A stretch of DNA of 59,074 nt, the filler included, from Jimgerdemannia flammicorona (lineage: Eukaryota): assembly GCA_003990765.1 (NCBI GenBank). It is 2 parts of 2 records of this genome, joined end to end, with 100 filler letters (N's around TTAATTAATTAA, not from the genome) between each part and the next. Parts side by side here need not be neighbours in the genome. Positions count along the whole stretch, not along the records: positions 1 to 29,497 come from RBNJ01000496.1; 1 more part is not named here. One strand, 5' to 3'. The position numbers were made by a program, and so were the translations under genes. Numbering within the stretch: the first letter of the stretch is position 1; each line of letters opens with the position of its first letter. Below are positions 16,473 through 59,049 of the stretch, one piece after another. Below the pieces are notes generated by a model. It saw only the letters and a list, made by a program, of their open reading frames with translations, was not told the origin of the DNA and made no database searches.

Positions 16473-17515
16473 TCTAGAAAAATACAAAAACAGCAAGCTT
16501 ATATACAGATTATATAAGAGACCATATAGTATCAAGCAAGCAGTATAGTTATAGAATAAAAGAATTGATAAACATCTTCTTAACAATGGATTCATATTAC
16601 AAAACAGATAATTGTATATATATCTAGTATTATGATGATGACATAGTATTCATTAGTATATGAATTGATGATATAATTATTATTACCAGTAAGAATAGGC
16701 TTAATAGAGTCAAAGAAGCCCTACATTGAGAATTTAAGATAACTGATATAAGTGACATATCCTTTCTTTTAGGGATATCAATTATATATGATAGAAATAT
16801 ATATACTATATATCTCTTACAAGAAACTTATGCCAAAACTATCCTTGAACATTTCAATATAAGTGAATACAAACCTGTCAGCACTCCTATAGATACATAT
16901 TTCTATGAAGTTAAGAAAGCCAAATACTATACTCAAGAATGATAATAATATACCCAATATTCTCTATCAGTAAGCAGTTAGTTTTCTTATATATCTAATA
17001 CTTAAAATGAGGTCTGATATATCCTATACTATTAATAAGATAGTACAGTATTCCTCTTGTTATAATAATTTATATTAGAGTACTATTAAGAGGATTTTCT
17101 GATACTTAAAGGAATCAGCACACTATATACTTATATTAAGTAGTAGTAATATTAGATTAAGTAGGAACAATGGCAAGAGCAATAGTATCTAGCTATCTGA
17201 TATATATGATACTAATTGGGCTAGAGACTTGGATGACTACTGGTCTACAACTGGATACCTCTTTCACATTAGTAAAAATGACAAAGAGTCTATCATTTTA
17301 TGACAAATATATAAGCAGAGTTCTGTGGTAACAATATTAATATAAGTAGAATACCAGGTATTATCATTAGTAATAAAGAAAGCTATTTGGCTTTATAAAC
17401 TATTAAAGAAACTCAAATTCACTCAAGAGAGCACTACACTATACCAGGATAATTAGTCTATAATTGCACTTACTAAGAATTCAGTACACTATAGCAGAAT
17501 GAAACATATTAATAT
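16473..17515 (+). mobile_element. Ty1/Copia RT-RNase H remnant (5'-truncated), left of the Gypsy A2 insertion
   Basis: IYRLYKRPYSIKQA..NKRIDKHLLNNGF, YDTNWARDLDDYWSTTGYLF, YQDN*SIIAL and MKHIN. Confidence 0.9.
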
Positions 17516-18010
17516 TGTGATAGTCAATCTGAATTAGTAACATGAATCAGGGGAATTAGACATTTGATCGTGGTACCTAAATCCAACTCCCAATATAGCT
17601 TAGCCTTACAAATAAGCAGTTATATTTTACAAGTGTAGAAACTTTAATACTTGTAGAAACTTTGGCAATTGTAGAAATTCTACAGATGTAAATCCTTCAT
17701 GATTGTAAAGATTCTAGCAGATGTAGAATTTGCACTTGCTGACTCATAGAAAACATAGTCATAACTTAGCCACCTTATAACTAGCAAAACTTATATAAAT
17801 AACCCAGTATCTTAGAGTGAATAAATCTCAGATCAAAATAGTTCAAAGCAAAGAGATAGCAAAGGAACTAGTAAGCCTGCAGGCAGATACACTTTGAACT
17901 CACCCACCCTCCCCTGCAACTTCAAGAGACTCTGCGAGAGTCAGAACAGTCAAGTTTTCAAGATACAGAAATCCAACGTACTTTCAAGAGTAAGCATCTG
18001 CTACATTACA
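17516..18010 (+). repeat. 5' LTR of A2
   Basis: TGTGA...TTACA, direct repeat of 24997-25491, with about 21-bp TGTAGAAA subrepeats and TATATAAAT near 17792. Confidence 0.96.
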
Positions 18011-18013
18011 ACT

Positions 18014-18035
18014 TGGTACCCATTGGCTGGTGATT
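18014..18035 (+). promoter_or_regulatory. Putative primer-binding site
   Basis: TGGTACCCATTGGCTGGTGATT, 3 nt after the LTR. The same motif occurs at 42585, at 59053 and on the minus strand at about 28635-28656. Confidence 0.8.
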
Positions 18036-18130
18036 CAAGACAAATCTCTCACTTTCAAGCTGAACAACAAACAACTGCCACTACCTGAACAACTATACAA
18101 ACTGAGCCCCAATACCCAGATAAGATAGAT

Positions 18131-21100
18131 ATGAGACTACCAGTATTCCATAGATATACCTCAGATGAATCAATCATCACCTTCATTGATGATTTCGAGC
18201 AGTATACTGCTGTAAGAACCCTGACAGCAGCACAGCAAGTAGCCCTTATGCCCTTTAGCCTATGAGGCCCTGCAAGAGTAGTATTCACAGCTGTAAACCA
18301 TGTGGGAAATGATGCCGATACTACACTGATAGCATAGAAGACCTGGCTTCGAACCACCTACTATACAGATAAGATCAAGCAAGCTCTGAAGGATCAGCTC
18401 AATACAATATACCAAGGAATGAGTGAAGATCCAAACACATTCTATACCAGAATCTGATATCAAATAATTCTTGTGGATTATGCTGATGCTATTCAAGACC
18501 AAGTAGTCAAAGCAACCTTTATGAAAGGAGTCTACCCAGAGATAGCTATGGCCATCCACTCATTATCAGTAATTCTGAATCTGCCACAGAAGGTCACCTA
18601 TACTCAGCGATACTGGATAGCTAGACATCTACAAGATCATACAATGGAAAGAGTCATGGGAGTCAAAATCGAAGCACCCAAGGCAACCAGTGTGATCTCT
18701 ACCACAATGATCAATCGAAACACACCTCAGCCAAAAGCTACAGAGCAGCAAAAGAACAGTGACCCTATGGAGGAACTTGCCAAAAGGTTTGCCAAAATGA
18801 CTGCCCACCTGGAAGATATAGTAAAGGAAATTCAAGGAAGAGACCACCACCCTGTTCAGAAGTTTGCTGCTACCTCAGATAAGAAGAAAGGCACCTGCTA
18901 TACTTGTGGAGAAGAAGGCCACTACTCATATAAATGTATGAGTGAAACTAAGTACAAGGCCCAACCAAGCAATGCTACTAGAAATAAGGAACAGACCAAC
19001 ACAATCACCTTTGAAGAAATCGGAGAATCTGATGAAGAAGAATGGGAGGCCTATCCTGCTCAGACCATCAAGAAGGATGTTTGCAAAGAACCCTACAAGA
19101 GACTGCCAGGAAGACCCAAGAAGAACCCAGTGAAAAAGCAGATAGAAACTGCCACAGAAAGCCAAGCCAAAGAGATGGACCAAGATATGGAGCTGGAGCA
19201 AGCAGTTCAAGATATCATCCAAGGAACCACTCCAGCCAGTGAAGGAGAAAAAGAAAAGAAGCTTCGCAAGACCAAGACCTTCAAGTATGATATCTTCAAG
19301 GACCTCAGTCAACAAAAGATCAATGCAACCTTTGGTTAGCTTGCAGAAATCTCAATATTCAGACAGCAAATGAGGTTTGGACTTGCCGAAATAACCAAGG
19401 AACAAGGATGGAAGATAACCAAGGCCAACAATATTCAAGAGGACTCAGGAGAAGAAAGTGAGGACAATTGCAAAACCTCTGCTTATGCAACATGCCAAAT
19501 CGAAGATAAAATCTTTGAAGCCATTATTGATACTGGAGCAGGAGGATGTCTCCTCAGCAAGAAGGCAGCAGACTGCCTAGGTTGGGATGTGGAAGAAGCA
19601 ACTAAGCTGGTGTTCATCACAGCCAATGGCACAAGAGCCACACCTCTGGGAAAAATCTGAGATGTTCCTGTCAAGATAGGAGGAGCAACCATCTCAGTAG
19701 ATGTAATTGTAACCAATGCCACCAACTATGATATCCTCATCGGCAATCAATGGCTTCACAAAGCCAAGGCAGTAATCGATCTCAATGCTCAGAAGATGCA
19801 GATCACCTACCAGGGACAGAAGATATGAATTCTCATCAATATCAATAAAGGAGTCCTGCCTGACATGGAGGAAGAAGAGAGTGAGCAAGAGGAAGCTTAT
19901 ATGGTGACTACTCCAAAGAAGAAGAAAGTTAGATGGATGAGTGAAGAAGAATAGTGCAAGAAGATTGTAGAAGATTATGCACCACAAGGAGTCTGTCCTC
20001 ATGGGATCAAGATGTACTATATGGAGCATATCAATGATTGCTATCAGTACACCATTGGAATCAAGAAGACCTATGAGGAAAGAAGACAGAAAGCCCTCAA
20101 GAAACAGGCCAGAGAAGAAGAGAAGGAGGAAGATGACAAACCACCAGCCCTCCTGGAGGATAGTGATGATGAAGAAGAAATCAAGATCAAGATTCGAAAG
20201 ATCCACTCTGATGCAGTCTTGCCAGAATACAAGTCAGAAAGCACAGCCAGAATGGACATTGCTATAGTAGAAGAGACTGTACTGGAACCCCAGACAACTA
20301 CCCTACTTGCAACTGAACTGGAGATGACCATCCCAAAGGATCATGTTGGGATTCTCAAGACAAGAAGCAGCCTGGCTAGAAGTGAAATCACAATCAAAGA
20401 AGGAGTCATCGATTCAGACTATACTGGAGAAATTCTACTCATTGCTAGGAATCACAATCCTACAATCCCATTTCCAGTCAAGAAGAAGGACCAATTGATG
20501 CAAATGTTGATCTTTTTGATCCTACAACCAAAGATCATAGAAGTTAAGAAGCTGGAGGAAACAAAAAGAGGAAAGAAAGGATTTGGATCTATAGGAAGAG
20601 GAGTATTCACCAGTACCAAGATCACCAAACTCGAGCATAAGAAGGAGGAAAACACAAGCAAGCACAGCTACACCATCGGAAATGAATTTCCACTCAAGAA
20701 AGACCTCAAGGAAATACTCTATGAATTTGAAGATATCCTTACCACAGATTTCAAGGATATCAAAGGAAAGACCCCACACTACTATCATAAAGTAGATACT
20801 GGAGACACCAAACCAATTTATCAGAAGGCAAGATCTGTCCCACCAGCCTACTGAGAATGGCTCAGAGAAGAAATCAAGCAGATGGAAGAAGCCAGCATCA
20901 TTAAAGAAGCCAGCAGCCCCTGGTCCTCACCTATTGTACTAGCTCTGAAAAAAGACAGCAAGCCTGGAGAATTCACCCCAAGACTCTGTGTTGACTACAG
21001 AAAGCTCAACATGGTTACCAAGAAGGATCACCAACCACTGCCCCTCATCAATAACATCCTCATAACACTGGGAGATGAAGCACAGTACTACAGCACTTTG

Positions 21101-22117
21101 GACTTATACTCAGGATTCCACCAAATCGGACTCACAGACATGGCAAGTGAAAAGTCAGCTTTCATCACCCTAGATGGAACCTATGTCTACCTATGAATAT
21201 CATTTGGAATGTGCAATGCATCAGCAAGTTTCCAGCGAATGATGAATAAAATCTTCTACTATAAAATCGAAAGATGGATGATGGTCTATGTTGATGATGT
21301 AATTATCTACAGCCAGACACCAGAAGAACACCTGCAGCATATCCGGCAGATAATGGAAAGACTGAGAGAGCATGGCCTATACATCAAGCCCAAGAAATAC
21401 AAATTCACAGAAATTGAGATCTCTTATCTTGGTCACATCATCAACCAAGATGGAATACACATGGACCCTCTCAAGATACAAGCAGTGGCAGCATACCCAA
21501 GACTCACCACTGTTACAGAAGCACAAGTCTTCATAGGACTCACCTCCTATTATTGCAGATTTATTAGAGGATTTTCTAATATTGTGAGACCAATCTATAA
21601 ACTTAACAAGAAGGACACCAAGTTCCAGTGGACTGGCAGACAACAAAAAGCATTTGATGAACTCAAGGTTAGACTGACCCAGGCACCCATCCTCAGAAGA
21701 CCTGACTGGACTCAAGAATTCATCCTACAGACTAATGCAAGTGCACAAGGACTAGGAGCAGTCCTAGCTCAAAAGAAAGATAAAGTGGAGTATGTCATCA
21801 CATACCTCAGCTGTGGAACCTGAGGAGCTGAAAAAGAATATAAATCCTACAAGTTGGAATGCCTTACAGTCATCTGGGCCATAGAAAAGTTCTACTACTA
21901 CTTGGCTGGAAGATACTTCACCATCCAAATGGACCACTCAGCTCTCACCTGGCTACTGACAACTGGACAACCCAAAGGAATCTATGCCAGATAGATAATG
22001 AAGTTACAAGCTTATAATGTAACCATTGTACACTGCTCTGGAAGAACCAATACCAATGTAGATGCCCTCTTACAGATACCCTGAACTACTTCCAACCAAT
22101 AAATCAATCATGAATAA
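18131..22117 (+). pseudogene. gag-protease-dUTPase-RT-RNase H single ORF of A2 (in-frame stops only)
   Basis: ORF pieces at 18473, 19370, 20012, 20882 and 21209 share one frame. Motifs: CYTCGEEGHYSYKC knuckle, IIDTGA, LCVDYRKLN, YVDD, FILQTNAS and DAL. Confidence 0.95.
20180..20596 (+). pseudogene. dut: dUTPase domain between protease and RT
   Basis: Trimeric dUTPase motifs: ARMDI, KTRSSLA, GVIDSDYTGEI, DQLMQMLI and RGKKGFGSIG. Confidence 0.93.
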
Positions 22118-23312
22118 GGAGCTCTACTACAGAATTATCACATACCTGGGACAGCAAAAGATGCCCCAATATCTGGAAGAATGGACACAAATGATTATCA
22201 ATAGAATATGGAAACAATTCAAAACTGACAGAGAAACACTGAAGAAAGGAAAACTACTAGTTATACCAGAACACAAGAAGGAGCAAGCAATGAAATCAGT
22301 ATATGAACTTGGCCATCTAGGAGGAACAAATACTTATGACAAGGCAAGAAGAACAATATGGTGGCCAGAGATGGAGGAAAATATCAGACAATTTGTCAAG
22401 ACCTGTGACAAATACCAGAAACAGAAACAAGACCAACAAAATTGAGTCCCAGGATCAGTACACATAGAACTAGTACCATTCACCCACATTGCAATAGATG
22501 TAATTGACCCTCTACCCTTAACTTTGACTGGCAACTGATATATCATCATCATCATAGACCTTTTTACAAAATAGATAGAAGCAGGACTCCTTATGGAAGC
22601 CAATGCACAGTCAATCGCTGATTTCTTCTACAAAGAAATCATCTGCCGATTCAAGACCCCATTGCAAGTAACCACAGATAGAGGAACAGAATTTGTGAAC
22701 CAGTTCTTTGAAGTTCTCTATAAGAAGTACAAGATTCAGTATATTTGGACCACAGCATATCACCCTCAAGGAAATGGACAAGTAGAAACAACCAACAAGA
22801 CCCTCAAGAATGTTATTGCCAAGATCTGTAATAACTACAAGAACTGAGATCACTATCTACCAATAGCATTATCCACTCTCCGGGATATCCGATCACAAAG
22901 TACCCACTTTATCTCTTGAGAAATACTATTCGAAGAAGAATGTTCTCAGGGAACCCTATCATCCAATGGAGATGCTATATGGAAACACATGGACATAGAA
23001 ATATGAAGACTATACCAAATCAGGAAGAAGGCTGAGGATTACATAACCAAGGCACAGACACTACAATGGAGGAATGCGGAAAAAACCCACAAACCTCTGG
23101 AGATTATCAAGATAGAAGACAAAGTCCTAGTGTATCAGAATATGGTAGAAGCTTCATGGTCACGAAAACTAGAGCCCAAGTGGAAAGGACCTTACCTTGT
23201 GCAAGATATAAAAGGGACCACCTTTTGGCTATGAAAACTCTCAGGCACAATCATCCCCACTACTATCTACTAAAACAGACTCAAGAAGTACCATGACCAG
23301 CCAATAAAGTAA
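22110..23312 (+). pseudogene. Integrase ORF of A2 (401 codons, +1 frame relative to pol)
   Basis: MNKELYY, HLGG..WWP..C, TDRGTEF, HPQGNGQVE and KWKGPY (GPY/F). No chromodomain seen. Confidence 0.92.
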
Positions 23313-23754
23313 CACAGCTGCCCTCAAGATCACCAGTGCCACCCAATGAGCCATAGAGAGATAATGGTATTCTATCAAACTGCTAACAATGGAGGAATCC
23401 TTTGATAGTATACAAAGTATAGTCCAGACCCACCTATCATGAATTTCACACTTCAAAGCCTACTAGACATGAACTGAGTTTCAGAAATACTTTAAGCTAG
23501 GACAACTACTGAATTCAAATTCAAAGATGGGGAAAGAAGACTGGATTAAAGAATGTCAGCTCACCTACATTCAGATCACAATTGCCAAGAGAGTGCACAA
23601 ATTATTCAAAGATGATGAGTCAGCTCTAGCTCATCTTCGAGAAGTAATCCCAGGAGATTTCGGATAGGTTAGGAGACAATATTGGAAGAATGTAATGGTG
23701 CAAATTGCACAGTACAAGGAGATACAGATCGTAGAAGCCTGGGAGTTTGAGTGA
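23293..23754 (+). pseudogene. Accessory ORF3 of Gypsy A (154 codons, unknown function)
   Basis: Fills the integrase-PPT interval. The frame is conserved with copy A1, including synonymous differences. The start is uncertain because codon 5 is TAA in both copies. Confidence 0.75.
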
Positions 23755-23784
23755 ATAGGATACTTCAGGGACGAATTACCTATT

Positions 23785-23795
23785 CAGGAGGAAGA
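23785..23795 (+). promoter_or_regulatory. Polypurine tract of A2
   Basis: CAGGAGGAAGA immediately before the TG of the 3' LTR. Confidence 0.85.
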
Positions 23796-23805
23796 TGTAA
23801 TGGTC

Positions 23806-24990
23806 TTTTTTTTTTTTTTGTTTAATGGACTCATGTCCTGCGGATTTTTATTGGAAGGGAACCTAGACTATATGGCCAAAACCCTCCCCCACCACCCACC
23901 AAGCACTGCCCTCCCATTAACCTAGGCTAGCTATTGTCCAGCAGCTCGACCATGCCAGGCGCAGCAGGGCTGATAAGCCCACACCTCATTCTGTGCACTA
24001 TGCTCTTCCTACCACCAGGGGAAACCCAACCATACGCCAATGACTGAAAGCGCACGCCCGAGAACCCATCATATGTACAAGGCCATGCCTGAGCCGAATA
24101 GAATAGCCCCTGCCACCCCAAAGAGAATGACAGGCAAATAAAAAACCCTCATCAAAGCACAACATAGTGGGTAGGGCCTGGTTCTCCCAGTTGAGGTGAG
24201 TAAAGGACTTACATGTGAGGTGGGAGGAAACCCCCAATACCCCACTACTCAAGCCTGTGGGCCTCGATCACATTGCCATATCAGCTCCCGGTTCCAGTTG
24301 AGTACAGCCAAGATGCCTGAAATGGGTAGCCTTGGGCCCCCTGACCCCCCCTGATGACTGGGGCCTCACCCCGCTACCCGCCAAAAGAAGCCAAGAGTGA
24401 CACCTACCACCTAACCATGCCGCACCAATCAAAAGGCCCCACCGAAGCAGTACCTGCCCCAGCCCCAATGACTGCCCCCAGCCTGGCACCCTACTGGTTC
24501 ACCGTAATCACCCTTCCGCCTATCTGTGACGGCCATCTCCCCTCCCATCCCGACAACACCTGAAAAGCAGTCACCTATGCCAGAACCGCGCTTGCCGGGA
24601 AGCTCGCCAAAGCCAGAGGGCTCCACCACAGACACCGAGGACCTGCAGGTAACCTATACTGAGCACTTGATGCCCAAGGTCGGCCGACTCCCTATATAGT
24701 CTGAGACATACCGAGACAACTCCTTGTTGGCGACAGCAAAAGGAAGAAGGCGCCGCACCAAAACGGGTATACCCCAGATGCAGCTGAAGGCACCAGAATC
24801 CGCGAAAAAGTGGAGGAAGCACTGATCTGACACCGATAAAGGGGCAACTCATCACCATTGCCCTCCTCCCACCATGCCCCTATAGGCACAGCAAACCAAC
24901 CCGAGGTAGAGGGGGTAATATTAGGGGAAAGGGGACTCGGAAGGTCACCTACCAAACCTTGTGACTGGTAAGGTAGCGGAGAAAGGAGCT
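23806..24990 (-). mobile_element. Poly(A) retroposon (probably a 5'-truncated LINE) with 16-bp TSD
   Basis: Poly(T) at 23806-23819. TSD GGAAGATGTRATGGTC at 23790-23805 and 24991-25006. GC- and CpG-rich. A second copy lies at 1-123. Confidence 0.9.
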
Positions 24991-24996
24991 GGAAGA

Positions 24997-25491
24997 TGTG
25001 ATGGTCAATCTGAATTAGTAACATGAATCAGAGGAATTAGACATTTAATTGTAGTACCTGAATCCAACTCCCAATATAGCTTAGCCTTACAAATAAGCAG
25101 TCATATTTTACAAGTGTAGAAACTTTAACACTCATAGAAACTTTGGCAACTGTAGAAATTCTACAGATATAAATCCTTTACAATTGTAAAGATTCTGGCA
25201 GATGTAGAATTTGCACTTACTGACTCACAGAAAATGTAATCATAACTTAGCCATCTTATAACTAGCAAAACTTATATAAATAACCCAGTATCTTAGAGTA
25301 AATAAACCTCAGATCAAAATAGTTCAAAGCAAAGAGATAGCAAAGGAACTAGTAAGCCTGCAGGCAGATACACTTTGAACTCACCCACCCTCTCCTGCAA
25401 CTTCAAGAGACTCTGTGAGAGTCAGAACAGTCAAGTTTTCAAGATACAGAAATCTGACATACTTTCAAGAGTAAGCATCTGTTACATTACA
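24997..25491 (+). repeat. 3' LTR of A2
   Basis: Direct repeat of 17516-18010; the differences seen are transitions. Confidence 0.96.
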
Positions 25492-25495
25492 ATAT

Positions 25496-25890
25496 ATAGT
25501 ATTATTTTATATGCAAATATATAGAAAACAGCACTATATACTTAGAATATATCTCCATAGAGTATATAATTGCAGACTTGTTGACCAAAGCCCTTCCAAA
25601 GCTGAAGTTTGAGTAATATACTAAAGAAATAGGTCTTATAAGTTATATATCAGTATTCAGTTAATTACAAAATACTTTTCAGACTATTAAAAGCCTTATA
25701 CTATATATATATCTATGAGTAGATTATATATATTACATTTTTTTATATTCTTTACCTATAGATAGATATTTCAGATATTTTAAGTATTCCAGAATACTTT
25801 TTGACCTATGAAAATTCCTTGAATATAGGATTTTATATAGTAAATTGAGTTATATATAGTTCTAGTTTTTTATATATATTATGCATTTAG

Positions 25891-25962
<72 letters not shown>

Positions 25963-26143
25963 AGTATATGTTTTATTTTTTTTTTTTTAGTTACATATCT
26001 CATTGAGTAAGAGTATTGAGATGACAGCTTGATATATCAGTGTATGATCTTATACTATTCTATCATATTTATATCATTTATCAGTAAAGTATAAAATATG
26101 TAATCTATACAACTTCAATAAAAAAACCCCTCTCTTTATAATA
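25496..26143 (+). mobile_element. Copia RNase H end, 3' UTR with poly(T), PPT and a 3' LTR of about 130 bp (26014-26143)
   Basis: I*YYFICKYIE...IADLLTKALPKLKFE. The LTR is homologous to the reverse complement of 48141-48270. Confidence 0.85.
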
Positions 26144-32630: not shown

Positions 32631-34559
32631 ATGAGTATCGACATAGATAGCAATGATTACACAGGTGAGCGTGCTGGTCAGGGGAGCAGTGGTGCCTTTG
32701 GCTAGCAATAAGTGGAGAGGAGGGGAGATGGTTTGGGGATGCCAGGGGACTTGATGGCTGGTAGAGGTACTGGTGGTAGAGGGAGGGGTGGCCTGAGGCA
32801 AAGTGGAGAGGAGAGGTCAACCTTTGCTGACAAGGTCAAGATGGGGAGAATGGCCACTAGTCTGGATGGTTGGCTGGGCCTGGGGAAGGCATCAATAGCT
32901 ACTGCTGGGGGACAGAGAGGAGTGTCCAGGGGAGTGTCCAGTGGTAGGGGAGGGGGGGGAGTAGGGGCTGGAGATGTGACTGTTGATGGAGCTGTGACTG
33001 GGGATCTGGAAAAAAATCCAGATATGATTGCAGTTGATGGTTCAGGACAGGGGGTGGGCATGAGGCCCAGGGACCTAGTGGATGGGGTGATGGGCATGGT
33101 GTTGGCACCATTACACAAGAAATCAAGATCATAATTTGCTGTCACATTGTGTTTCAGGGGCTTGGTGGTAACTGTAAGGATAATCTTGGGGCTGGTGATA
33201 CAGGAGGTGAAAGGGGTAGCATTGGTGAAGTTTTTGAAGAGGAAGGAAGGGGTCGAGGTAGGGTTTGAGGAAGAGGAAGCATTGCTGGCTACCATGGAGA
33301 AGTGGGTAATAGTGGGTGGGGTTGTGGTTCCTATGGCCAGGTGCATGTACTGGGACCCTTGTATGATATAGTTGATGATGTTGGATCTTCCTATGGTATT
33401 GAGAGAGAGGGCCAGGGAGTTGATTGTGGGAGCAGTCAAGGAGTATGGAGATATTGTAGACATCAGGTTCAAGGTCTGGGAGGGTACAGAGCTCTGGACA
33501 GGTGATGTTGATGTCTGGGTGAGACTGGTTGGAAAGGAGAACATGAGGAAGACAAGGGATTAGTCAGTGACTCTGAAGTGGGGACAAGTGGAGTACAAGG
33601 TTGCAAGGGTGAAGGGGACTCAGGAAGAGGAGGAAGATTTGCTTGAGGCTCTGGAGGATCTGGCTGGTGTGGTTGAGAGGAGGAGATTGGCTTGGAAGGA
33701 GTATGAAGCCAAGATAGTTGTGGAAGTCGTTGATGAGAAGAGGATCAGGATAGATTAGGTGATCTGGGAGAAGATACAGGGGAGGAGAATCCAGAAAGAA
33801 CTGCTGGTGAAGTTGGATGATGGTGGGGCTGGTGGCAGAGCAAGGGATGGGAGAGCAGGATTGTGTGAGAGTGTCTGGGCTGGGGAATGAGAGATGGCCC
33901 AAGGTGGGGCCAAGAATGGACCAAGGAAGAAGAGGGAGGGTAGTGTAGAGGTGGATGCAGAAATGAGCGAAGGAGTACACCCTCAGTATAGTGTCCTGGG
34001 TGGGGCAGGGGGTGAGGAGGAGTTACTGGATATCCCAGATGAGGAGGGGGATGAGTCAGTAAGGAGGAGCACTTTAGTGGACCCAGAGGTGGGGGGTGAT
34101 CAAGTCACCCAGGGTATGGCAGAGGCAGTGGATGAGGAAAAGTGGCTGTGGAAGACTCTGGAAGGGGTAGCAGCAGAAGAGTTGGGGGGTGAGGACTTCC
34201 AGGTTATGGAGGAGAGGCATTGGGAGGAAATTCTTCATAGTGAGGAGATACCAAGAAAAGTGTGGAATGAGATCCTGGCAGTTCTCTTGGAATCAGTTGA
34301 ATACCAAGTTGATGATCAGAGAGAGGAGGAACTTAGAGGGATTGCAAATGACCAGGCAGCTTACTTGTAGGGCTTGAGGAAGGGATTGGAGAAGTGGAGA
34401 GTGGTCTGCACAGACTATCAGTTAGAGATGGAGGTGGTGGATGGGGTGGAATATCAAGAAATCTTGGAAGCATTGGATGCTCAGGCTATCATAGAGGGTG
34501 ACTTGGAAGCAGAGCAGTACTTGGATCTGGCTGGGGATGAGATGAGTATGGAATACTAG
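32631..34559 (+). pseudogene. LINE ORF1 (Gly-rich N-terminus, RRM-like middle, acidic C-terminus)
   Basis: In-frame pieces at 32712, 33147, 33372, 33567, 33894 and 34374. LDLP...EYGDIVDI...WTGDVDVWVRL. No CCHC knuckle seen. Confidence 0.85.
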
Positions 34560-34590
34560 GCTGGAGTCTCAAATCCAAACATTATTCAAT

Positions 34591-37500
34591 ATGAACAGTA
34601 TAACTTGAATATTCTCTTTGAATGTAAATGGGTTATGGGGGGCAGCTAGGAGGAAGTATAATTTGGATGGCTAAAGGGACTGAATGTGGATCTCTTTTTA
34701 CTATAGGATGTCCATTATGAGGTAGATGTGGACTTACAGAATTGGACTAAGGAATGGGGGGGGATGGCAGTATAGATGGGGAGGGTGGGTATTCTAGTTT
34801 GAAAGGGGATGGGGAACATTGGCGACATTGGACATTGGGGGACTCAGTTGGTGTAGAGAGTGTGGAAGAGGCCTGGATGGAGCCTGTTGACAGTTGGGTC
34901 ATATTACTGTCCAGCAGAGAGAGGGGAATGGGTGGATTGGATTCAAAGTTTGAAAGAGGCTGGTGTTTTGAGTGAGATTGGGTTTGACTGTCTTGGGGGT
35001 GACTTCAACATAGTGCAAGATAAGGGGATGGACAGGACAGATGACAGGAGAGGAATGAGGAGCAGGAGTGGTGGGTTGGATGATTGGTTAGAGATAGAGG
35101 TTGAGTTTTTTGGTTGATTCAGGGAGCCAGTTTTGAGATGATCATCAAATTTATACTCACTGGATGATAAGGCTGGGCTCAAGGATTGACTGGATATTGA
35201 TAGCAGAATGCTGAAGAGCAGCTCTCTGGACAATGCTGGAGGTGGTGGGGTGTCTGTGGTCAGATCACTGGGGTCTGTTAGGAGGGGGGAGGTTTGGGGG
35301 AAGTGGGGATGGGCCTGGACATTGGTGACTGAATTCTTCTTTGTTAGAGAATGGGGCTTCATGGGCAGACTGGCAGAAGGAGGTTATTGAGAAAATTAAG
35401 AGGTGGCAGGAACAGGGCCTGGTAATTGGGGACTACTGGAGGAGACTGAAAGTAAGTGCTCAGGGGTACTGGAGGGAAGCAGGGAAAGGGAGGTGTACTT
35501 AGCAGCAGCAGAGGGTGCTATGGGTCTCACAGTGATTGGCAGCACTTATGGGGAGATGGGCAGGGGTGCTAGAAGACTGGGAGTGGCCAACTGGTGTATT
35601 GTGATGATCCAGAAGGAAGTTGAGGAGCTTAAGGGAGTGTTACAAAGGGAGGAAGAGGTTAGGCTGAAGGGGATGGTGGCATGGCTGAGGTGGTAGGGGC
35701 TTGAGGAGGGAGAGAGATCTACTAGGTTTTTATCATGAATATTACAAGCACAGAGAACTAATCAGCAGTGGGATGGGCTCCTGGATATAGATGGGGAAAT
35801 AGTGGTGAAGACTCTAGTGATTCTGGGATTACTGAGGACTTGTTGGGTGGATTTGTGGAGTGAGGAGAAAGGGGGGGAGGATGCTTTGAACATTGAGAGG
35901 CAGCTGGAAGATTGGTATCCAGATCCTGCAATGGGCCTGGAGACTCTGGGAGATCCAGTGAAGGGTGAGGAAATTTGCAAGGTCTTGGCTGTGACAAGTA
36001 AGGGGATGGCTCTGGGTGAGAATGGACTTCTCTAGGATTTTTGGAAGAAGATGGCTGGGGTGGCAGAGGTATTGGAGGAAATGATGGAAATGTGTGATAA
36101 TGTTCTTTGGTCTGAAACTTGGATTGGGGGCCAGGACCTAGGACTGGTCTCCTTGCTCTACAAAGATAAGAGGTGATGGAAAGATTGGAAGAACTGGCAG
36201 CCAATCATGCTACTTGACATGGACTGCAAACTAGTGACAAAGATATTAGTGATAAGGCTGCAGGGAATTGCTCAGCAAGTACTTGGTGTGAAGCAACAAG
36301 GATTTGTCAGTGGCCAGTTGATCTGAGATGGGACAGCTTGGGTACATGGTATGATTAAATGGGCCCAGGCTGCAGGGGTGGATGGCAGATTGGTTTTTTT
36401 GGATCAGGAGAAGGCATATGATAGACTGAGGAGAATCTGGCTAGAGAAAGTATTGAAATGGGTTGGTGTTCCCCCAGGGTTCCTAAGGTCATTGATTGGT
36501 CTTTTGGAGAACAGTCAGGCTGCATTGGTCATCAATGGCCACAGGGGTATAACCTTTCCTCTTGATCATGGGGTGCCACAAGGAGACCCTTTGTCACCCA
36601 TCTTATATGCCCTCTCTCTGGAGCCCCTACTGGATAGGATCTGGCATCGAATTCGGAGTTTGGACATTCTAGTGATTAATTGAAAGGTGGGGGCCTTTGC
36701 AGATAACATAGTGGTTGGACTGGGCTCATTAGCAGATGTGGGGGAGTTAAGGAGATCTGTTGAATGGTATGAGAGGGGCTCTGGTGCTAGACTCAATTGG
36801 CACAAATGTGAGACTCTGGTACTAGGTGGCAGAATTGTTGGTGGTAATGTGGTTGGGATAGTGGTACTGGCAGGAGAGCCAGTTCGTTATCTGGGGATCT
36901 ACTTTTCAGTATTTGGGTCCCTTCTGCCCCATGCATGGTGGGATCAATAACTCCTGACATGGGGAAATGTGCTTTTGTGATGGGGTGGTTGGCATATATC
37001 CTTGGCAGGAAGGGTGACAGTGCTGAATATGTATTGGATGCTGAAGCTGTGGTATGTGAGATACATATCATCTGGACTTCTCAGCTTGGGTGGTCAGGAG
37101 ACTGATGAAAATGGCAAGATCATTGATCTGAGCAGAGCAGCAGAGTCAGATAGGTTGGGAGGTTCTGACCTTCCCAGTGGAAAGAGGTGGGCTGGGTTTA
37201 GTGGACTTTACCAAATAGCTTCATTGCTTGAGAGCATGGTGGCTGAGGAGGGCGAGTGAGCTGAGGGATCAGGAGTGGGTACTGCTTATGCAGAGGGTGT
37301 GAGAGGCCCGGTATTCCCCCCATGGAGCCTCTGGTGACCTTCTTGCATTGGTGGCCATGGATGGGAGCAAGAGGATATAGTATAAGGGCTTCTGGTGGAG
37401 AGTGGTGGATGGTATTAGAAGAATTAGACTTTGGTGGCAGAGTGATGAGGGAGAGGAGGATTGGGGACCACAGATGTGGAGATGGGACAGGCTGCTGCTG

Positions 37501-38265
37501 GGCAGTGTTTTGGTGGAGGACTTCCAGCTTGGCAATGAAATGGAGTATTTGCAGGGCTTAGGTGGGAACCTTTTGCCTGAAACCTGGCAGAGGGTTGGGA
37601 TTGGCAAGGTGTGAGAATGGAATGGTCTCTGGCTTTGGGGCAGGTGGGTGATGTGGTGGCTACCCCCCAAGTTCTGGGTGGTTTGGTGGTAAGTTCTTAG
37701 GCAGAATGTGATGTTGAACTATCAGTCTGGGCACTTGGTGGCCAGTGGCACGTTTGAATGTGAGAAATGTTCAGATGTTGGACAGGAAGGGGGAGTGATA
37801 CAAATGCCTGAACATTGGCTTGGCAAATGTGATGTTTTGGGGATGTTTGGCATCATATTGCAGACTGGTTAGGGCTGCAAGCCCTGAAAGGAGAGGAAGG
37901 GGGGAGATGGAGAGAGCTCTGCCAAAGACTGGTAGGAGGGTTTGGGGATGAATGGCTGATCCTTGGTTGGGTTCTGGCCATATGGGTCAGGCTGGCTAGA
38001 CATTGGGTATATGTATTTGAGGAGGGCCAGTGGGTTGGCATTGGGGATAAGGTGGTACATTGGAAATAGTTATTACTGGATATTTTGAATGGCTGGTGGT
38101 GAGGGTGAGGACCAGGTGGGGGGAGTCACAGGGGGTTGGTACAGTGTATCTCCCAGAAAAGTGGCGGGAGAATTCAGGTGGTGGGTGACTGGGTTGTCCT
38201 CTAGCAGGGGGGAGTAGAGGATGGAGGAGTAGATCCGAGGGGTATCAGTTGAAGGGAAGGGGTGA
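34591..38265 (+). pseudogene. LINE ORF2: AP endonuclease, reverse transcriptase and C-terminal Cys/His motif
   Basis: SLNVNGL, GGDFN, SDH, NWQPIMLLDMDCK, LDQEKAYD, GVPQGDPLSPILY, FADN, YLGI and CEKC..EHWLGKC. Confidence 0.93.
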
Positions 38266-38360: not shown

Positions 38361-41010
38361 TTTTCCAAAGTTCTCCAGATATTGACTCCCTAGCATTTAG
38401 CATTTAACACCCAGTTAATCCTTGAGCCCAACCCTGCTACTGAGTGAGTATAGACTCTATGATCCCCTATCTAAGTCTCCTAGAATTTACTAAAGTGCTC
38501 AAAAATTCGACTTCCTCCCAGACCTCCATACCACCACTTCTACCAACTATCTCTCTTCTTCTATCAGTTCTGTCTATCCTTCTATCACATATCATATTAA
38601 AGTCTCCACCTAGGTAGTCAATCCCTATCTCCACCAATACTTCAGACTCTTATAGCCCTTGAATCCATTCCACCCTCTCTCATCTTTCTACTGGACAATA
38701 CATAGTATAACCTAATAGTTAAGAGTTACTAGCCTGGCCTCCTCCAAACTCTCTATACTACTCTATTCCCCCAATGTCCAACATCTTTAATATCTGCTGC
38801 TCTCTTTCTAACCAGAATACCCACACACCCCTGCCATACCACTATATCTTCCTATTCTCTCATCCAATCCAGAATATCCAAGTCTCTATTATATCCAATA
38901 TTCTATAGTAAGAATAAATCTGCATTCATTCTCTTTAGTCATCCAAAGATATTTTGATGCCTTGCTACTCCACATAGCCTTTGGATATTCAAAGACAAAA
39001 TTGTTCATATTGAATAATATTATTTAAAGAATAGCTATCTACTCTCTAATTCTATACTTACTGTATTACCTGCATCATCTAGGTTTCTCTCTGCCTCAAG
39101 CTCATCTGCCTCTCTCTACTGAGTATCCAATGCCTCTAAGATCTCCTAACAATCTACACTATCCAGAGCTTCTATCTCTGTCTAGTACTCCTTGTATATC
39201 ATCTGCAACTTCACTAACCCCTTTCTCAGATACTACATATATAGCTCAGTTATTCACAATTGCCAGAAGTATCTCCTCTCTATCATCATCTACTTAGTAT
39301 ACTCCAGCCTCTAGCAGAGCTGCCATTATCTCATCCAGGAGTTTCTACTACATCTCTTCACCATGCAGGATTTTACCCCAGTGCCTCTCACTCAGTATCC
39401 AAAAGTCCTCTCCCCATAGCTCCTCAGGCACTACATTTTCTAACATCTTCCACAGCTATTTCTCCTTGTCTACAGCCTCCTCCACTCTCTGCACCACCTC
39501 CTTCTGCCCTTCCACCTGCCCCCCCTCTATATTCCTTCTCACCAACTTGTCTAAAACCTCCTCCAGCTCTTCTGCAGTTTGTAATCTCCTTCAGCCCCAT
39601 CTAGCACTCTATACTGAGAGTGCTCCCCCTCAACCATCTTCTCATTCTCTATGACAACACTCAGTCCAGAGCCTCCCCTCCCTCCTGGGGCCTCCTCTGG
39701 TGCTACTCCCTTTCTCCTACCAAGACACTTATTCTTAATTCAGCTTCTTCTACAGTAGTCCCCCCCTCTACCCCCCCTCCCAACTTGGCCAACAGATCCT
39801 TCTAAATATACCTCTCTTATGCCCTCTCTCAGGCTGTCTAATCCAGCTACACCTTCTTACCATTCACAATTTCTATTACTGTCTTAACCTCAAACTCTTT
39901 CCAAACCAATCTCCTTCTCTTCATAGCCTCAGCCAGATTCTCTAGTATCTCCAGTATATCCTTTTCTTCCTCCAGCATCTCTTTTACTCTTAAGACCTTG
40001 TACTCCACAGGTCCCCATTTGAGGACTGCTAGCCAGTCTCTTACTTTCTCTATATTCTTCTTATCTGTCAGTCATACTCTAATATCTATATCTTCTGTCC
40101 TAAACTCTATGCCTTCCTAGACTCTAAACTCAATATCTATGATATCTCTATTCTCCTTTATAACCTCTATAATCAACTCTCTGGCCATCTCTTTTGACAT
40201 TATAGGAATATCTAATACTGTCAGCTATACTATTTGAAGATCCTAGTACAAGTACTGGGCTATAGAGAATATGACCCCTCCTATAACTACTCTATTCTCT
40301 ATCACTTCTAACAGCATATCCTCTTTTTTGAAGCCTATCTCCACCCCTTTCAGACCCTTCAAAAATTTCACCAAGGCTACTCTCTTCATCTTCTGGGCTA
40401 AAAGCCCTAGATCATCCTTATAGTCATCACTAAGCCCTAGAAATATAACATGATAGCAAATTCTAATCTCAACTTCTTGAGTAACAGTACCACCACCAGA
40501 CCTATCACACCATCTGTCAGATCTCCAGGCCTCATTCCCACTCTCTACTCAGACTTACTATTAACTATTATATCTGACTTTTTTTTCAAATTAGTAGTCT
40601 CCTTGTTATCAGCAGTTCTACTTTCTCCAGCAACTACTCCTCTAGCCCTGCCACTCTCACTACAATGGGCTGCTCTACCAGGCCTAGCAGCCCTTGCCAT
40701 CTTCTTGCTCTTTCTCAGCCAACCCTCTAATCTAGTCATCAGATGGCCTTTCTTCACCTTGTCTGCAAAGCTCATCTTCCTAGTCTCCTATCTTCTAGTA
40801 CTACCCCCTCCCCTTCTACATCCTCCTACTAGCAGATTCTGCATACTTTCCCCCAAGCCATGACTCCTCCCCACATACTGCTAGTCAAATATACTAGAGC
40901 TACCCTGTCTAGTACATCCTTTGGAATACTCATCAGTTGCTATATTACTAGTATCTATTCTCTAAAAATGATGTCTTGAGTATTGCCACAAGTTTGTATA
41001 ATCTGAATAT
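38361..41010 (-). mobile_element. LINE copy 1, 5' part (ORF1 and APE)
   Basis: Joins seamlessly to 32552 across the TSD, next to the SDH motif. Contains SFADKVK. The 5' ATTCAG lies near 41008. Confidence 0.9.
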
Positions 41011-45000: not shown

Positions 45001-45278
45001 AGAAGAAGAACTGACTGGCACAGATGTTGATCTTCCTAGTTCTTCAGCCAAGGATCATGGAAGTCAAGAAGTTGGAGAAAATAGAAAGAGGAGAGAAAGG
45101 ATTCAGATCCACAGAAAGAGGAGTATTTGCTAGTATCAGAATCACTAAACTAGATTACAAGAGGGAGAAAACTGCAAACAGATATGGCTACACTATTGGA
45201 AATGAATTCCCACTCAAAAAGGAACTCAAGAAGATACTCTATGAATTCAAGAATGTCTTAGCTACAGATTTCAAGGAT
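42094..45278 (+). mobile_element. Gypsy family A copy A3, 3'-truncated (LTR, PBS, gag, protease, dUTPase)
   Basis: 5' LTR at 42094-42581, PBS at 42585, colinear with 17516 to about 20758. Confidence 0.93.
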
Positions 45279-47962: not shown

Positions 47963-48140
47963 TATACTAGAGAAAGATATTAATTTAATTTGTCTTTATA
48001 TAAGTTGTAGTATATATAAATAATTAGGTATAGATAACTATACTATGCTAAAAGTTTATATTATCTAATTATACTTTATTATTCACTTGTTATATTGATA
48101 ATAAGTTTATTTTATATAAGATCTATAATTAATATATCTT

Positions 48141-49925
48141 TATTGGAAAAGAGATTGATTTTATTGAAGTTATATAGATTTTGTATTTTATATATTACTA
48201 ATGAATAATATAAAACTGATGAAAAAACCTAATCATATATTGATATACATATGAAGTTGCCATCCCAATATATCTACTTAATAAATATATATTCAAAAAG
48301 AAATACAAACTGGAGTAAAAAGTAATATAATATATTCAAAAACTAAAACTATATATAACCTAAAGAACTATATATAACTCCAAATTACTATTATAAAACC
48401 TATATTTAAGGAATTTTCACTAGTTGAAAAGTATTCCAAAATATCTAAAATACCCACAAAATATAATATATGTAATCCACTCATAGATGAGAGATGTCAA
48501 TATAAATATAAGTAAATATATTATAGTAAGAAAGACTTTTATAGTCAGAAAAGTATTCTGTAATCATCTGAATACTAGTGTACTACTTGTAAGACTCATT
48601 TCTTTAATGTATTACTCAAACTTAAGCTTTGGAAGAGCTTTTGTAAGTAAATCAGCAATCATATACTTTATAGGAATATATTGTAAGTATATAGTACCAT
48701 TTTCTATATAATTTTATATAAAATAATATTGTATATTAATATGTTTTATTCTACTATAATCTATCAGATTTTTGTCAAGTACTATCATTGATTGATTGTC
48801 TTACTTAATTAGTATGGAGTTCTCATTAAGGAAGTGAAGCTTTTTTAATTATTCACAGAGCCAAATGACTTCTTTTATTACTAATGATAATATCTGGTAC
48901 TTCACCTATATTGATAAAATAGCTATAGATGATTTCTTATATATTTTCTATGAAATAATAGATTCTTTGTATTTTTGTTAATATGGAAGAGATACTCAAT
49001 ATATCAGCAGTTATTTAGATCTCTCACCCAATTAGTATTATATATACTAGAGAGCCATATAGTATTATTGTTATTATTGCTTCTACTCAATCTGCTGAGA
49101 GTAAGTATATAGTATGTAATACTCTTAAGATATCTGAAAATCCTCTTAATGGTGCTCTAATATAAATTATTATGGTTGAAAGAATACTATTCTACCTTAT
49201 TTATAATATATAATATATCAGACCTTATTTTTAGTATGAGATATATAAGAGAACTAACTGTTTGCTGATAGGGAATGTTTTTATTATTATCTTTTATACT
49301 ATTTTTGATAAATATATTATCATCATCTTCAAGTATAGTATCTGGCTTTCTTAACTTTACAGAAGTATCTATAGAAGTGTCTATAGCTTTACATTCTCTA
49401 TATTGAAATATTCAATAATTGTTTGAGTATATATTACTTGTGAGAGATGTATGACATATATAATTCTATTACATATAATGGATATTCTCAAAAGAAAGAA
49501 TGTCTCACTCATACCTATTATCTTTAATTCTTGGTATAGGATTTTTTTGACTCTGTTAAGTTTATTCTTGCTAGTAATAATAATGATATCATCTATCTGT
49601 ATGCTAAGGAATACTATGCTACTATTATTATTATACTAGATATATATATATATAATTATCTACTTTGCAATATAAAAATTTATTATTAAGACAATATTTA
49701 TTAATCCTTTTATTCTATAGCTATATTGCTTATTTAATATTATATAGTCTCTTATACAATCTATATATGAGCTCACTGTTTTTATATCCTTGCAGTTGAC
49801 AGATATATAGTTTAGTATCTATATTATTATTCAGAAATACTACCTTTATATCTATTTGATAGATTTTGAGATTATATACCATACTGATCATAAGGAGTAT
49901 TCTAAGAGATATAAGAATGACTATT
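48141..49925 (-). mobile_element. Second Ty1/Copia remnant (RT-RNase H and 3' LTR 48141-48270)
   Basis: SLRILL..YQIDIKVVFLN, KHINIQYYFI and IADLLTKALPKLKFE. Homologous to the 16473-26143 Copia. Confidence 0.9.
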
Positions 49926-57473: not shown

Positions 57474-59049
57474 TGTAACAGTGACCCCAGAATGATGACA
57501 TCAGCACAGGTGACAGCCTTTCCTTGCAAGCCACCAGATTGGAGCACAAGAAGATTATATGGCATACGAGATAAGCAATGATGATCAACTGTGAGTCATT
57601 GTGACTACAGTACAAGCATCCCAAAGAATATAAAAGAAGGATCAAAGAACCATTGTAGCAGCAACCAACAAGAACCACCAATCTCAAAATAGCTCAAAGA
57701 CTTACCATAAATGAAATGCCTGCTGCCTGCCAAACCTCAAGGTCAAGGAACCATCAAGGCACCTCAGTTGAAGAAAGGATGTTCCAAGACATCAGAAGAG
57801 CCATGGGGACCTATACAAGAAGGACTCCCAGCATCAACCTAGATACTGCAGACCCTTATCACTTTATTCTCTACTGCTGTGAAATGGAAACAAGGATCAC
57901 CATTGCTACCAAATGTCTCCAAATGTGGCAGGAGTATGAAATAGGAAACCTCCTCTGCCAGGAGTTCCCACAGGCCAGCACTCAAGAGCTACAAGATGCC
58001 ACTCCCATGGATATATGTGAAATGAGGATAGCTAAGAAAATCCATCAGATCTTCAGGCATGCACCATGGTCAATCCCCAAATTGGAGTATATTAGAGTCT
58101 CAGACTTCAGAGATCTGTCATCTCACTATATCAATATACTAGAAGCCAGAGTGGCTACAGAAGCCCAGTCCACTATCACCCTCAACAGCAAAGAAGTAGA
58201 AGACTTCTGGCATCCCATCCTTCAGGAGAACCCAGACCAATTCCTGCAAGGATTGATCTCAGTATTCCAAGGTCCAAGCATCCAGGTTAGACCTCCCCAA
58301 GACCCTACATTTGTTCCTTATTTTGTAGAAGAGAACCTCAAAGACTGGAGAGCTCCAGATCTTGTTCCCGATTTCCCCACCGAATGTGATGATGTCATCG
58401 GCAATGACATCATCCCGCATGACATATGCAAAGCATGCAAACTGTATGATGATGAATTTGTGGATCTCATCTCCTTCAGTAATGATGATGATGATGAAGC
58501 CCCCATGGTCCTGAACTTTCTGCACTAAGTTCTTTATTACACTGGATAATACTACCACTGGTATTCTCATGTAACACTGGATAATGCCAGCACTGATATT
58601 CTGAGGTGATGTGAAATTGTTCCAGCACTAGTATTCTGAGGTGATGCGAAATTGTTCCAGCACTGGCATTTTGATGTGATACTAAATAATACCAGCATCC
58701 TAAACCTGTACAACCATTAGTGCCAACTCTGGAACTTAGTAGTTTTAGTTATTAGAATTTAAATTTAGCTTTATATCTTAGCAACCATTGAATTATATTT
58801 TATATAAATACTCCTCTTATTTCCTCTGAAATAAAGTCAGTCAAGTTTCAGTCAAGTTCACTTACACATACTTCCTTGCAAGCAATCTAAGAGATAACAA
58901 GATAGTTAAAGATAAGAAGTTTGAGGACTATAAGACCTTGGGAAGGTACTCCAATAAGAACTTGCTTATAACAAACTTGAGTTAGTCTAAGAGATACACC
59001 TTGAAGAGAATCTGGCATATTTGAAGGACTCAGCGACCACTATGTGACA
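57474..59049 (+). repeat. 5' LTR (1576 bp) of a Gypsy B element continuing beyond the window
   Basis: TGTAACA...TGTGACA termini followed by ACT plus PBS. Homologous to 6922-8474. Subrepeats of about 34 bp at about 58540-58700 and TATATAAATA at 58801. Confidence 0.9.
57716..58528 (+). CDS. Intact 270-aa ORF inside the LTR (U3), unknown function
   Basis: Stop-free ATG ORF conserved in the second LTR copy. The central region resembles Gypsy A ORF3 and the tail is acidic. Confidence 0.8.
   Translation: MPAACQTSRSRNHQGTSVEERMFQDIRRAMGTYTRRTPSINLDTADPYHFILYCCEMETRITIATKCLQMWQEYEIGNLLCQEFPQASTQELQDATPMDICEMRIAKKIHQIFRHAPWSIPKLEYIRVSDFRDLSSHYINILEARVATEAQSTITLNSKEVEDFWHPILQENPDQFLQGLISVFQGPSIQVRPPQDPTFVPYFVEENLKDWRAPDLVPDFPTECDDVIGNDIIPHDICKACKLYDDEFVDLISFSNDDDDEAPMVLNFLH

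Follow-up and report, generated by a model that had tools for sequence, protein, structure and literature searches.

A probable third gene between integrase and the polypurine tract of a Ty3/Gypsy lineage found decayed in Jimgerdemannia flammicorona

The stretch of DNA analyzed here (the window, 59,074 nt) comes from the genome assembly of Jimgerdemannia flammicorona (GCA_003990765.1) and joins parts of two records with 100 N filler letters; positions 1 to 29,497 come from RBNJ01000496.1, and all coordinates count along the whole stretch. The window is largely a patchwork of repeats that have decayed (GC content down to 0.19–0.33), and it contains a Ty3/Gypsy retrotransposon, copy B, on the plus strand (17516–25491). 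This element carries a third open reading frame (ORF3) between integrase and the polypurine tract, which is the subject of this report. Copy B belongs to the Ty3/Gypsy group (Metaviridae), as its gag has a CCHC knuckle and is followed by protease, reverse transcriptase (RT), RNase H and integrase in that order. Its long terminal repeats (LTRs; 495 bp, 94% alike) read TGTGATAG...CATTACA, with TG...CA ends. The target-site duplication ATAT stands on either side (17512–17515 and 25492–25495), and an uninterrupted copy of the target site on the minus strand, at about 48733–48737, represents the empty site for copy B. A second copy, A1 (122–5555, with an LTR start at about 5547), is 77% identical to copy B, and a metagenome contig of 6479 nt, L001, holds a nearly intact relative. 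The features of copy B and the ORF3 of copy A1 are as follows:

17516..18010, plus strand: 5' LTR of copy B (TGTGATAG...CATTACA), 94% identical to 24997–25492
18131..22117, plus strand: ORF1 of copy B, degraded, from a three-frame reading; gag with CCHC knuckle, protease, dUTPase, reverse transcriptase and RNase H, ending in CAT GAA TAA
22110..23312, plus strand, +1 frame: ORF2 of copy B, degraded; integrase with H2C2 zinc finger, rve core and GPY/F-type end, no chromodomain
23293..23754, plus strand, +1 frame relative to integrase: ORF3 of copy B, a pseudogene of 153 codons and TGA with 7 internal stops (ORF3 profile E 3e-70)
23785..23805, plus strand: polypurine tract caggaggaaga and first 10 bases of the copy B 3' LTR, aligned with L001 6288–6308
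23806..24990, minus strand: GC-rich, poly(A)-tailed insertion of 1185 bp that splits the copy B 3' LTR and is not part of the Gypsy element
25007..25491, plus strand: remainder of the copy B 3' LTR
5044..5505, plus strand: ORF3 of copy A1, a pseudogene, colinear, with 8 internal stops and the terminal stop lost (ORF3 profile E 9e-53)

ORF1 of copy B is colinear with L001 774–4619, and its domain order is backed by Pfam matches on L001, where ORF1 is open for 1281 codons from gag to RNase H (zf-CCHC at residues 206–222, aspartyl protease at 418–507, dUTPase at 648–775, RVT_1 at 892–1057 and RT_RNaseH at 1120–1248). The next ORF of L001 matches Integrase_H2C2 and rve and has a single stop. ORF3 of L001 is open from the ATG at 5795 to the TGA at 6254–6256, and the purine tract and LTR start (TGTGACGG) follow 35–45 nt downstream. 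In copy B, the polypurine tract caggaggaaga occupies 23785–23795 and the first LTR bases, TGTAATGGTC, 23796–23805.

The ORF3 ATG of copy B (23293–23295) lies within taCCATGAcc in the +1 frame relative to integrase, whose own frame stops at a TAA (23310–23312) after an overlap of 20 nt. ORF3 ends at a TGA (23752–23754) located 30 nt ahead of the purine tract. The initial annotation of this DNA had described such a +1 overlap opening toward the polypurine tract and a copy A1 that keeps the frame at 5044–5505, and both descriptions stand: the ORF3 sequences of L001, B and A1 are colinear over 154 codons with zero indels, and codons 67–69 read TTT AAG CTA in B and TTC AAG TTG in A1, as it had quoted. 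The frame and its TGA exist, but they do not form the open 154-codon frame that was claimed. ORF3 contains seven internal stops in copy B (codons 5, 19, 24, 50, 58, 60 and 125) and eight in copy A1 (codons 5, 19, 50, 76, 84, 100, 131 and 150), where the terminal stop is now TTA. The stop at codon 5, present in both copies, had been noted as the sole doubt; further stops occur throughout. Both window copies of ORF3 are dead pseudogenes, a point that the initial annotation missed. It had also placed the ATG of both junctions within YAT-GAN codons of the upstream ORF. This is correct for the integrase ATG at 22110 (CAT-GAA), but the second junction of L001 reads CAT-GGC.

All of the ORF3 stops in copies B and A1 are of the C>T/G>A decay type, and each internal stop corresponds to an Arg, Gln or Trp codon (once Lys) in L001. 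Relative to L001, C>T plus G>A changes number 620 versus 376 in the reverse direction in copy B and 975 versus 291 in copy A1, with CpA as their most frequent context in both. This excess points to decay after insertion that resembles repeat-induced point mutation (RIP). As both copies were inactivated after they inserted, no ORF3 protein would be made from this window. A profile search nevertheless recovered ORF3 in both window copies that reach the post-integrase region. We considered whether segmental duplication could account for A1 and B. The sequence flanking B matches the empty site (~48.7 kb) and not the A1 flank, and the two copies were therefore treated as separate insertions. Their flanks are otherwise unlike, apart from arrays of an 8-nt tandem repeat at 6314–6582 (A1) and 25813–26030 (B), each ~300 nt past the 3' LTR of its copy.

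Two further stops are shared with the reference element. The DLFTK-W codon of integrase is a stop in L001 (5074–5076), B and A1 (TAG, TAG and TGA, respectively), which seems to reflect independent hits at a TGG codon and indicates that L001 itself is lightly decayed. An in-frame TGA also interrupts gag (…SL*GPAR…) at 18263–18265, and does so alike at L001 771–773 and in copy C; this could be a decay hot spot, a site of readthrough or the sign of a start further downstream.

Database relatives of ORF3 extend the family beyond the window. A protein search with the copy B translation as query (stops as X) returned eight homologous proteins at 63–78% identity (E 6e-58 to 9e-35). With cluster members included, public databases hold 15 ORF3 homologues from several sublineages that are 63–95% identical to each other. 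Four of them (P0003, P0013, P0017 and P0018) are full-length proteins of 153 aa that start with MAN or MAT and end with EAWEFE. Contigs from four runs of three studies carry ORF3. Its presence in both window copies, L001, 15 proteins and four runs shows that it is not a single-copy feature. In L001, the ORF3 stretch has no stop in its own frame versus 5–15 in each of the five other frames, and 1 of 20000 shuffles of this stretch was open.

To measure selection, transversions were counted by codon position, using for ORF3 only the part that does not overlap integrase. The counts at positions 1/2/3 were:

ORF3, L001 versus B: 7/3/22
ORF3, L001 versus A1: 11/3/22
integrase, L001 versus B: 14/10/38
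gag to RNase H, L001 versus B: 106/77/264

The third-position excess in ORF3 had binomial p values of 4.5e-5 (L001–B) and 5.8e-4 (L001–A1). The Nei–Gojobori method (NG86), applied to the three DNA sequences of L001, B and A1, gave rough dN/dS estimates of 0.115, 0.224 and 0.151 for ORF3, 0.13–0.22 for integrase and 0.08–0.17 for gag to RNase H, versus 0.56–1.96 when the ORF3 stretch was read in the two wrong frames. We also surveyed variants by aligning to L001 the contigs of two soil metagenome runs and of two runs of one organism, and tabulated the best-supported 40 of 279 variant places. Among those listed in L001 5840–6253, 19 of 27 fell at third, 7 at first and 1 at second codon positions, and 4 of the 7 first-position variants were synonymous (Leu or Arg). 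None of the 12 indels listed fell in L001 5807–6249; nine lay in 6260–6362, the 100 nt past the stop. These patterns show that ORF3 is under purifying selection in its own frame, at a strength like that of integrase, and that it has been kept up as a coding sequence, as is asked of an additional ORF (aORF) in an LTR element.

The predicted ORF3 protein is hydrophilic, with a grand average of hydropathy (GRAVY) of about −0.6 and an isoelectric point of 5.7 to 8.8 among family members. No membrane-spanning segment was found: the highest 19-residue Kyte–Doolittle mean stayed below 0.9, at 0.19–0.46 in the four full-length proteins, and the signal peptide or transmembrane (TM) anchor of an env-like protein is missing. 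Pfam assigned no family (E up to 10) to the ORF3 products of copies B and A1 or to the database proteins P0017, P0021, P0022 and P0024. A profile search of 1.84 billion representatives gave six matches, among them no fusion to integrase and no longer cellular protein. Two of the matches, P0021 (165 aa) and P0022 (154 aa), are remote relatives that differ little from ORF3 in length, at 24–25% identity, and share with the ORF3 family the motif IA.R[IV]Y.LF.....AL.HL.G..P.DF. When these two were added to the alignment, AlphaFold2 returned a model of eight helices with a predicted local distance difference test score (pLDDT) of 82.6 and a predicted template modeling score (pTM) of 0.79.

Searches with the ORF3 sequence and model found no fold relative above noise. 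A sequence profile search of the PDB gave one chance-level match (E 0.074), Foldseek against the PDB a best E of 0.55, VIA-align against all representatives a best Z of 5.9 (the chance range for helical models), and the viral structure library BFVD a best E of 0.15. The ESM Atlas returned unnamed or unrelated clusters only, and a scan of viral contigs with the ORF3 alignment gave no match. The possibility that ORF3 is a copy of part of ORF1 was rejected (hhalign probability 0.5%). Based on the model and the hydropathy profile, the ORF3 product is predicted to be a soluble, all-helical member of an orphan family that is neither env-like nor a chromodomain. The initial annotation had proposed a soluble, helical, non-env product acting as an uncharacterized accessory protein, and had asked for structure prediction and for dN/dS across copies, with values near 1 and frame-breaking indels speaking against a gene. 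Its proposal is borne out by the hydropathy profile without a TM segment and the eight-helix model, by a frame that is open in intact relatives and lacks a Pfam family or fold relative, and by dN/dS values of 0.115–0.224 with no indel in frame.

The junction upstream of ORF3 has a similar geometry. The integrase ATG (22110; L001 4612) opens a +1 frame 5 nt ahead of the stop of ORF1, inside CAT GAA TAA, alike in B, A1 and L001; the sequence of this RNase H/integrase junction is AUGAAUAA. With the L001 integrase as query, 177 proteins were recovered at E values of 1e-30 or below, mostly 405–450 aa long. We counted start columns in the best 120 of these. The N-terminal part could be aligned in 105 of them: the first residue coincides with the L001 start Met in 89, 7 extend upstream and have Met at this column, 1 has Lys at it and 8 are truncated. 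Met thus occupies the column in 96 of the 97 untruncated relatives among the best 120 of 177, in agreement, as far as anatomy goes, with the three-cistron layout that the initial annotation had described. Gene callers place starts at ATG by design, but the starts coincide rather than scatter, which argues that the integrase start Met is conserved and, hence, that a large clade has integrase as a cistron of its own. ORF3 repeats the integrase geometry one step further. Its AUG lies in ACCATGG in L001, 41 nt upstream of the integrase stop (5836–5838), and 17 nt upstream in copy B, where a private change has brought the stop closer; at both junctions the AUG is close to the upstream stop. The L001 integrase ends 13 residues past RLKRYH and its relatives end a few residues after a KKYH motif. 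Pfam detected no chromodomain in the integrase ORF or in ORF3, and matched integrase to Integrase_H2C2 and rve only.

Taken together, we consider it quite probable that ORF3 is a genuine gene of a Ty3/Gypsy lineage with the order gag-protease-dUTPase-RT-RNase H, integrase and ORF3, and that it encodes a soluble, all-helical protein of 153 residues. The protein would be initiated independently at its own AUG rather than fused to integrase. It could be translated from a 3'-coterminal subgenomic RNA, either spliced or internally initiated, a route that we regard as quite possible though short of an even chance. A possible but somewhat less favored route is that ribosomes reinitiate on the genomic RNA after terminating at the integrase stop. 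Readings, by eye, of splice sites or an internal promoter in the integrase 3' end were dropped, as coding for integrase already constrains that sequence. The position of ORF3 and the selection on it suggest that its product is an accessory factor in the element's own cycle. As a tentative first guess, and one more likely wrong than right, it may be a cofactor of integrase or of the preintegration complex that stands in for the chromodomain this integrase lacks; it could alternatively regulate the element's RNA or transcription, or antagonize host genome defense.

Several observations weigh against this reading. The ORF3 profile has no match in the post-integrase stretch of a related copy on the minus strand (16323–13305) that is 67% identical, which implies that only some members of the clade carry ORF3 or that it changes rapidly. 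Short contigs are the source of the database proteins, and on these gene callers report any frame that is open; several of the proteins carry decay-type changes (e.g., W for R). Among the sequencing runs listed for the element, no RNA run contained it, and two metatranscriptome runs matched next to none of its sequence words. Saturated dS (0.8–3.7) and a set of three sequences make the dN/dS figures rough, and 40 of 279 variant places are a thin base for the survey. The structure was confident in 2 of the 5 AlphaFold2 models only, and a first run with 15 close homologues and without the two distant ones gave a pLDDT of 49.8. No family or fold match that bears on ORF3 function was found. The coupling to integrase translation that the initial annotation had inferred found no support: the ORF3 AUG of L001 is as far as 41 nt upstream of the stop. 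No TGGGA motif, as in a termination upstream ribosome-binding site (TURBS), lies within 100 nt upstream of either junction, other signals not having been sought. TGGGA occurs 17 times in L001, below the shuffle mean of 19.1, and the predicted fold of the junction RNA is no more stable than that of shuffled sequences (z 0.16).

A bolder version of the same anatomy is that a large, probably fungal Gypsy clade is truly polycistronic, with integrase and ORF3 both translated by stop-restart and ORF3 representing a new class of accessory protein that has its own fold; we regard this as unlikely. Restart at +1-frame AUGs that precede the stop by a few to about forty nucleotides would then yield a falling dose, from Gag-RT to integrase to ORF3, without any frameshifting. 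ORF3 could in that case be an adaptor for integrase or for chromatin, or a factor that promotes restart, like the caulimovirus transactivator. A programmed +1 frameshift that makes ORF3 a C-terminal extension of integrase, the fusion replacing the missing chromodomain, is improbable. ORF3 is indeed in the +1 frame of an integrase that has no chromodomain, at the position where chromoviruses have theirs, and in L001 its frame is open from 5756, 39 nt before the ATG, so that a shift site could lie in 5756–5838. Yet L001, B and A1 all retain the ATG (as ACCATGG in L001), the database proteins that reach the N-terminus begin at the ORF3 Met, and none of the six matches among the representatives is fused. 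Furthermore, integrase relatives end a few residues after KKYH, and no slippery site was found, although none was sought.

The selection data bear on two other explanations. That a host gene piece was transduced by one lineage and has no role in the element is very improbable, even if LTR elements are known to capture genes downstream of pol, ahead of the 3' LTR (PMC7264820), and the family is small, with six matches among the representatives. Both window copies have ORF3, as do L001 and several sublineages that are 63–95% identical, and contigs from four runs of three studies carry it; selection on it is as strong as on integrase, and the 1.84 billion representatives yielded no longer or cellular homologue. 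The idea of a chance open stretch in a spacer, conserved for a cis-acting role of its RNA or DNA, would fit window copies that are full of stops, the border with the polypurine tract (a cis element) and the want of a known family or fold. It is largely refuted and hardly credible now, given a third-position bias in the ORF3 frame only, 0 stops versus 5–15 in the other frames with 1 in 20000 shuffles open, and zero listed indels in frame versus nine just downstream. Relatives at 24–25% identity also retain the length and motifs.

Errantiviruses and Athila-type Gypsy elements carry an env or env-like ORF3 after pol. The ORF3 described here is likewise a third ORF after pol in Ty3/Gypsy, but it has no signal peptide or TM segment, and its product is 153 aa long and all helical. 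Chromoviruses have a chromodomain at the integrase C-terminus. ORF3 resembles it in following directly after a GPY/F-type integrase end, but differs in having a separate frame and its own AUG, a helical rather than a chromo fold, and no Pfam chromo match. Plant LTR retrotransposons have additional ORFs, in either orientation, downstream of pol and ahead of the 3' LTR (Vicient and Casacuberta, 2020; PMC7264820). The sense ones are like ORF3 in position, strand, presence in most copies of a family and mostly unknown function. ORF3 differs in its probably fungal host with RIP-like decay, its 153 aa, its overlap with the integrase end and its non-env character, and it has no sequence similarity to anything named. 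Among fungal elements, Boty/BcGypsy1 of Botrytis cinerea has an extra gene, brtn (Zhao et al., 2011, cited in PMC8365987), and fungal Gypsy elements are drawn with an "add. ORF of unknown function" (Novikova et al., 2010; PMC2864245). Both are precedents for an extra ORF in fungal Gypsy; brtn is antisense, going by the title of the paper cited for it, whereas ORF3 is sense.

To our knowledge, dUTPase is rare in LTR retrotransposons. The window has it between protease and reverse transcriptase (about 20216–20560; residues 648–775 of L001 ORF1, Pfam E 2.7e-28), and elements of Postia, Phanerochaete and Tuber are reported to encode it (Novikova et al., 2010; PMC2864245). The elements Juno, Vesta and TelKA of bdelloid rotifers also have a dUTPase between protease and RT, together with varied ORF3s (Rodriguez and Arkhipova, 2017; PMC5408684). 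They resemble copy B in both the dUTPase position and an ORF3 after pol, but their ORF3 types (env-like, GDSL lipase, DEDDy exonuclease and TM proteins) are unlike the present one and their hosts are animals; the available part of that account describes no separate integrase cistron for them (PMC5408684).

Stop-restart is also the mode of translation at the AUGA of victoriviruses, in M2-2 of respiratory syncytial virus (RSV) and at the UAAUG of SART1. In pneumovirus M2-2, the AUGs used for restart precede the stop by tens of nucleotides. The hypovirus CHV1 uses stop-restart at a UAAUG in a fungus, after a long ORF (PMC2699510), and calicivirus VP2 is a termination-reinitiation cistron (PMC2793014). 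Fungal ribosomes are therefore capable of such restart. ORF3 is like these cistrons in its AUG close to the upstream stop, its different frame and its presumed long polycistronic RNA. It is unlike them in that its AUG lies 41 nt (L001) or 17 nt (B) upstream and that no TURBS-like motif or structure was found. In the literature searched we found no LTR-element case of termination-reinitiation and no account of the ORF3 family or of a separate integrase cistron, although figures or supplements of PMC2864245 and PMC8365987 may show like ORFs.

The window holds other elements, one of which may be related to ORF3:

57716..58528, plus strand: second LTR-element family with a 270-codon open ORF, a possible but weak distant relative of ORF3 (ORF3 hidden Markov model independent E 0.0011)

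This ORF is part of an open 289-codon frame (57659–58528, plus strand) just before a second-family LTR, mirrored on the minus strand at about 8474–7500. Aligned with ORF3 by hhalign, it scored a probability of 48% (E 1.8e-4), with the shared motif IAKKIHQIF...SDF, and BLASTP matched it to P0021 (E 7e-5). It has five intact database homologues at 60–81% identity. The second-family ORF may thus be a longer, distant member of the ORF3 gene family.

In the diverged Gypsy copy at 16323–13305 (minus strand), similarity to copy B is lost exactly at the integrase end, and the post-integrase stretch of ~330 nt also opens with an ATG in the overlap. A database protein that is 79% identical to the L001 integrase (P0030) looks like the integrase of the sub-family to which this diverged copy belongs. 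The end of the diverged copy adjoins a repeat complex in which inverted and direct repeats of 230–340 nt (88–95% alike; 8473–9288 and 12431–12936) bracket a GC-rich stretch of ~4.5 kb; the whole complex may be a foldback or terminal inverted repeat (TIR) element. The insertion that splits the copy B 3' LTR has a T14 run at 23806–23819, a GC content of 0.557 and a flanking 16-bp duplication, ggaagatgtRatggtc (23790–23805 and 24991–25006). It is an undecayed retroposon and seems to postdate the RIP-like decay. A 3' end of the same family, with its poly(A), lies inside copy A1 at 1–123 (plus strand); the two sequences share 93% identity over 116 nt. In the long stretches at 33001–38000, 39001–41000 and 45001–48000, where the GC content is 0.40–0.52, the GC skew is extreme (+0.34 to +0.56 and −0.32 to −0.57).

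From its sequence and distribution, ORF3 appears to be a new accessory gene maintained by selection, in a three-cistron anatomy that is unusual but conserved. Extra genes of LTR retrotransposons are raw material for accessory functions like those of retroviruses; outside env, almost all are uncharacterized, and fungal examples are few. If the ORFs are coupled, the element would be an LTR-retrotransposon counterpart of stop-restart in fungal RNA viruses, and reinitiation downstream of very long ORFs could be studied in it as a simple system. For annotation, a ~153-aa "hypothetical protein" that recurs in soil metagenomes is explained as a retrotransposon gene.

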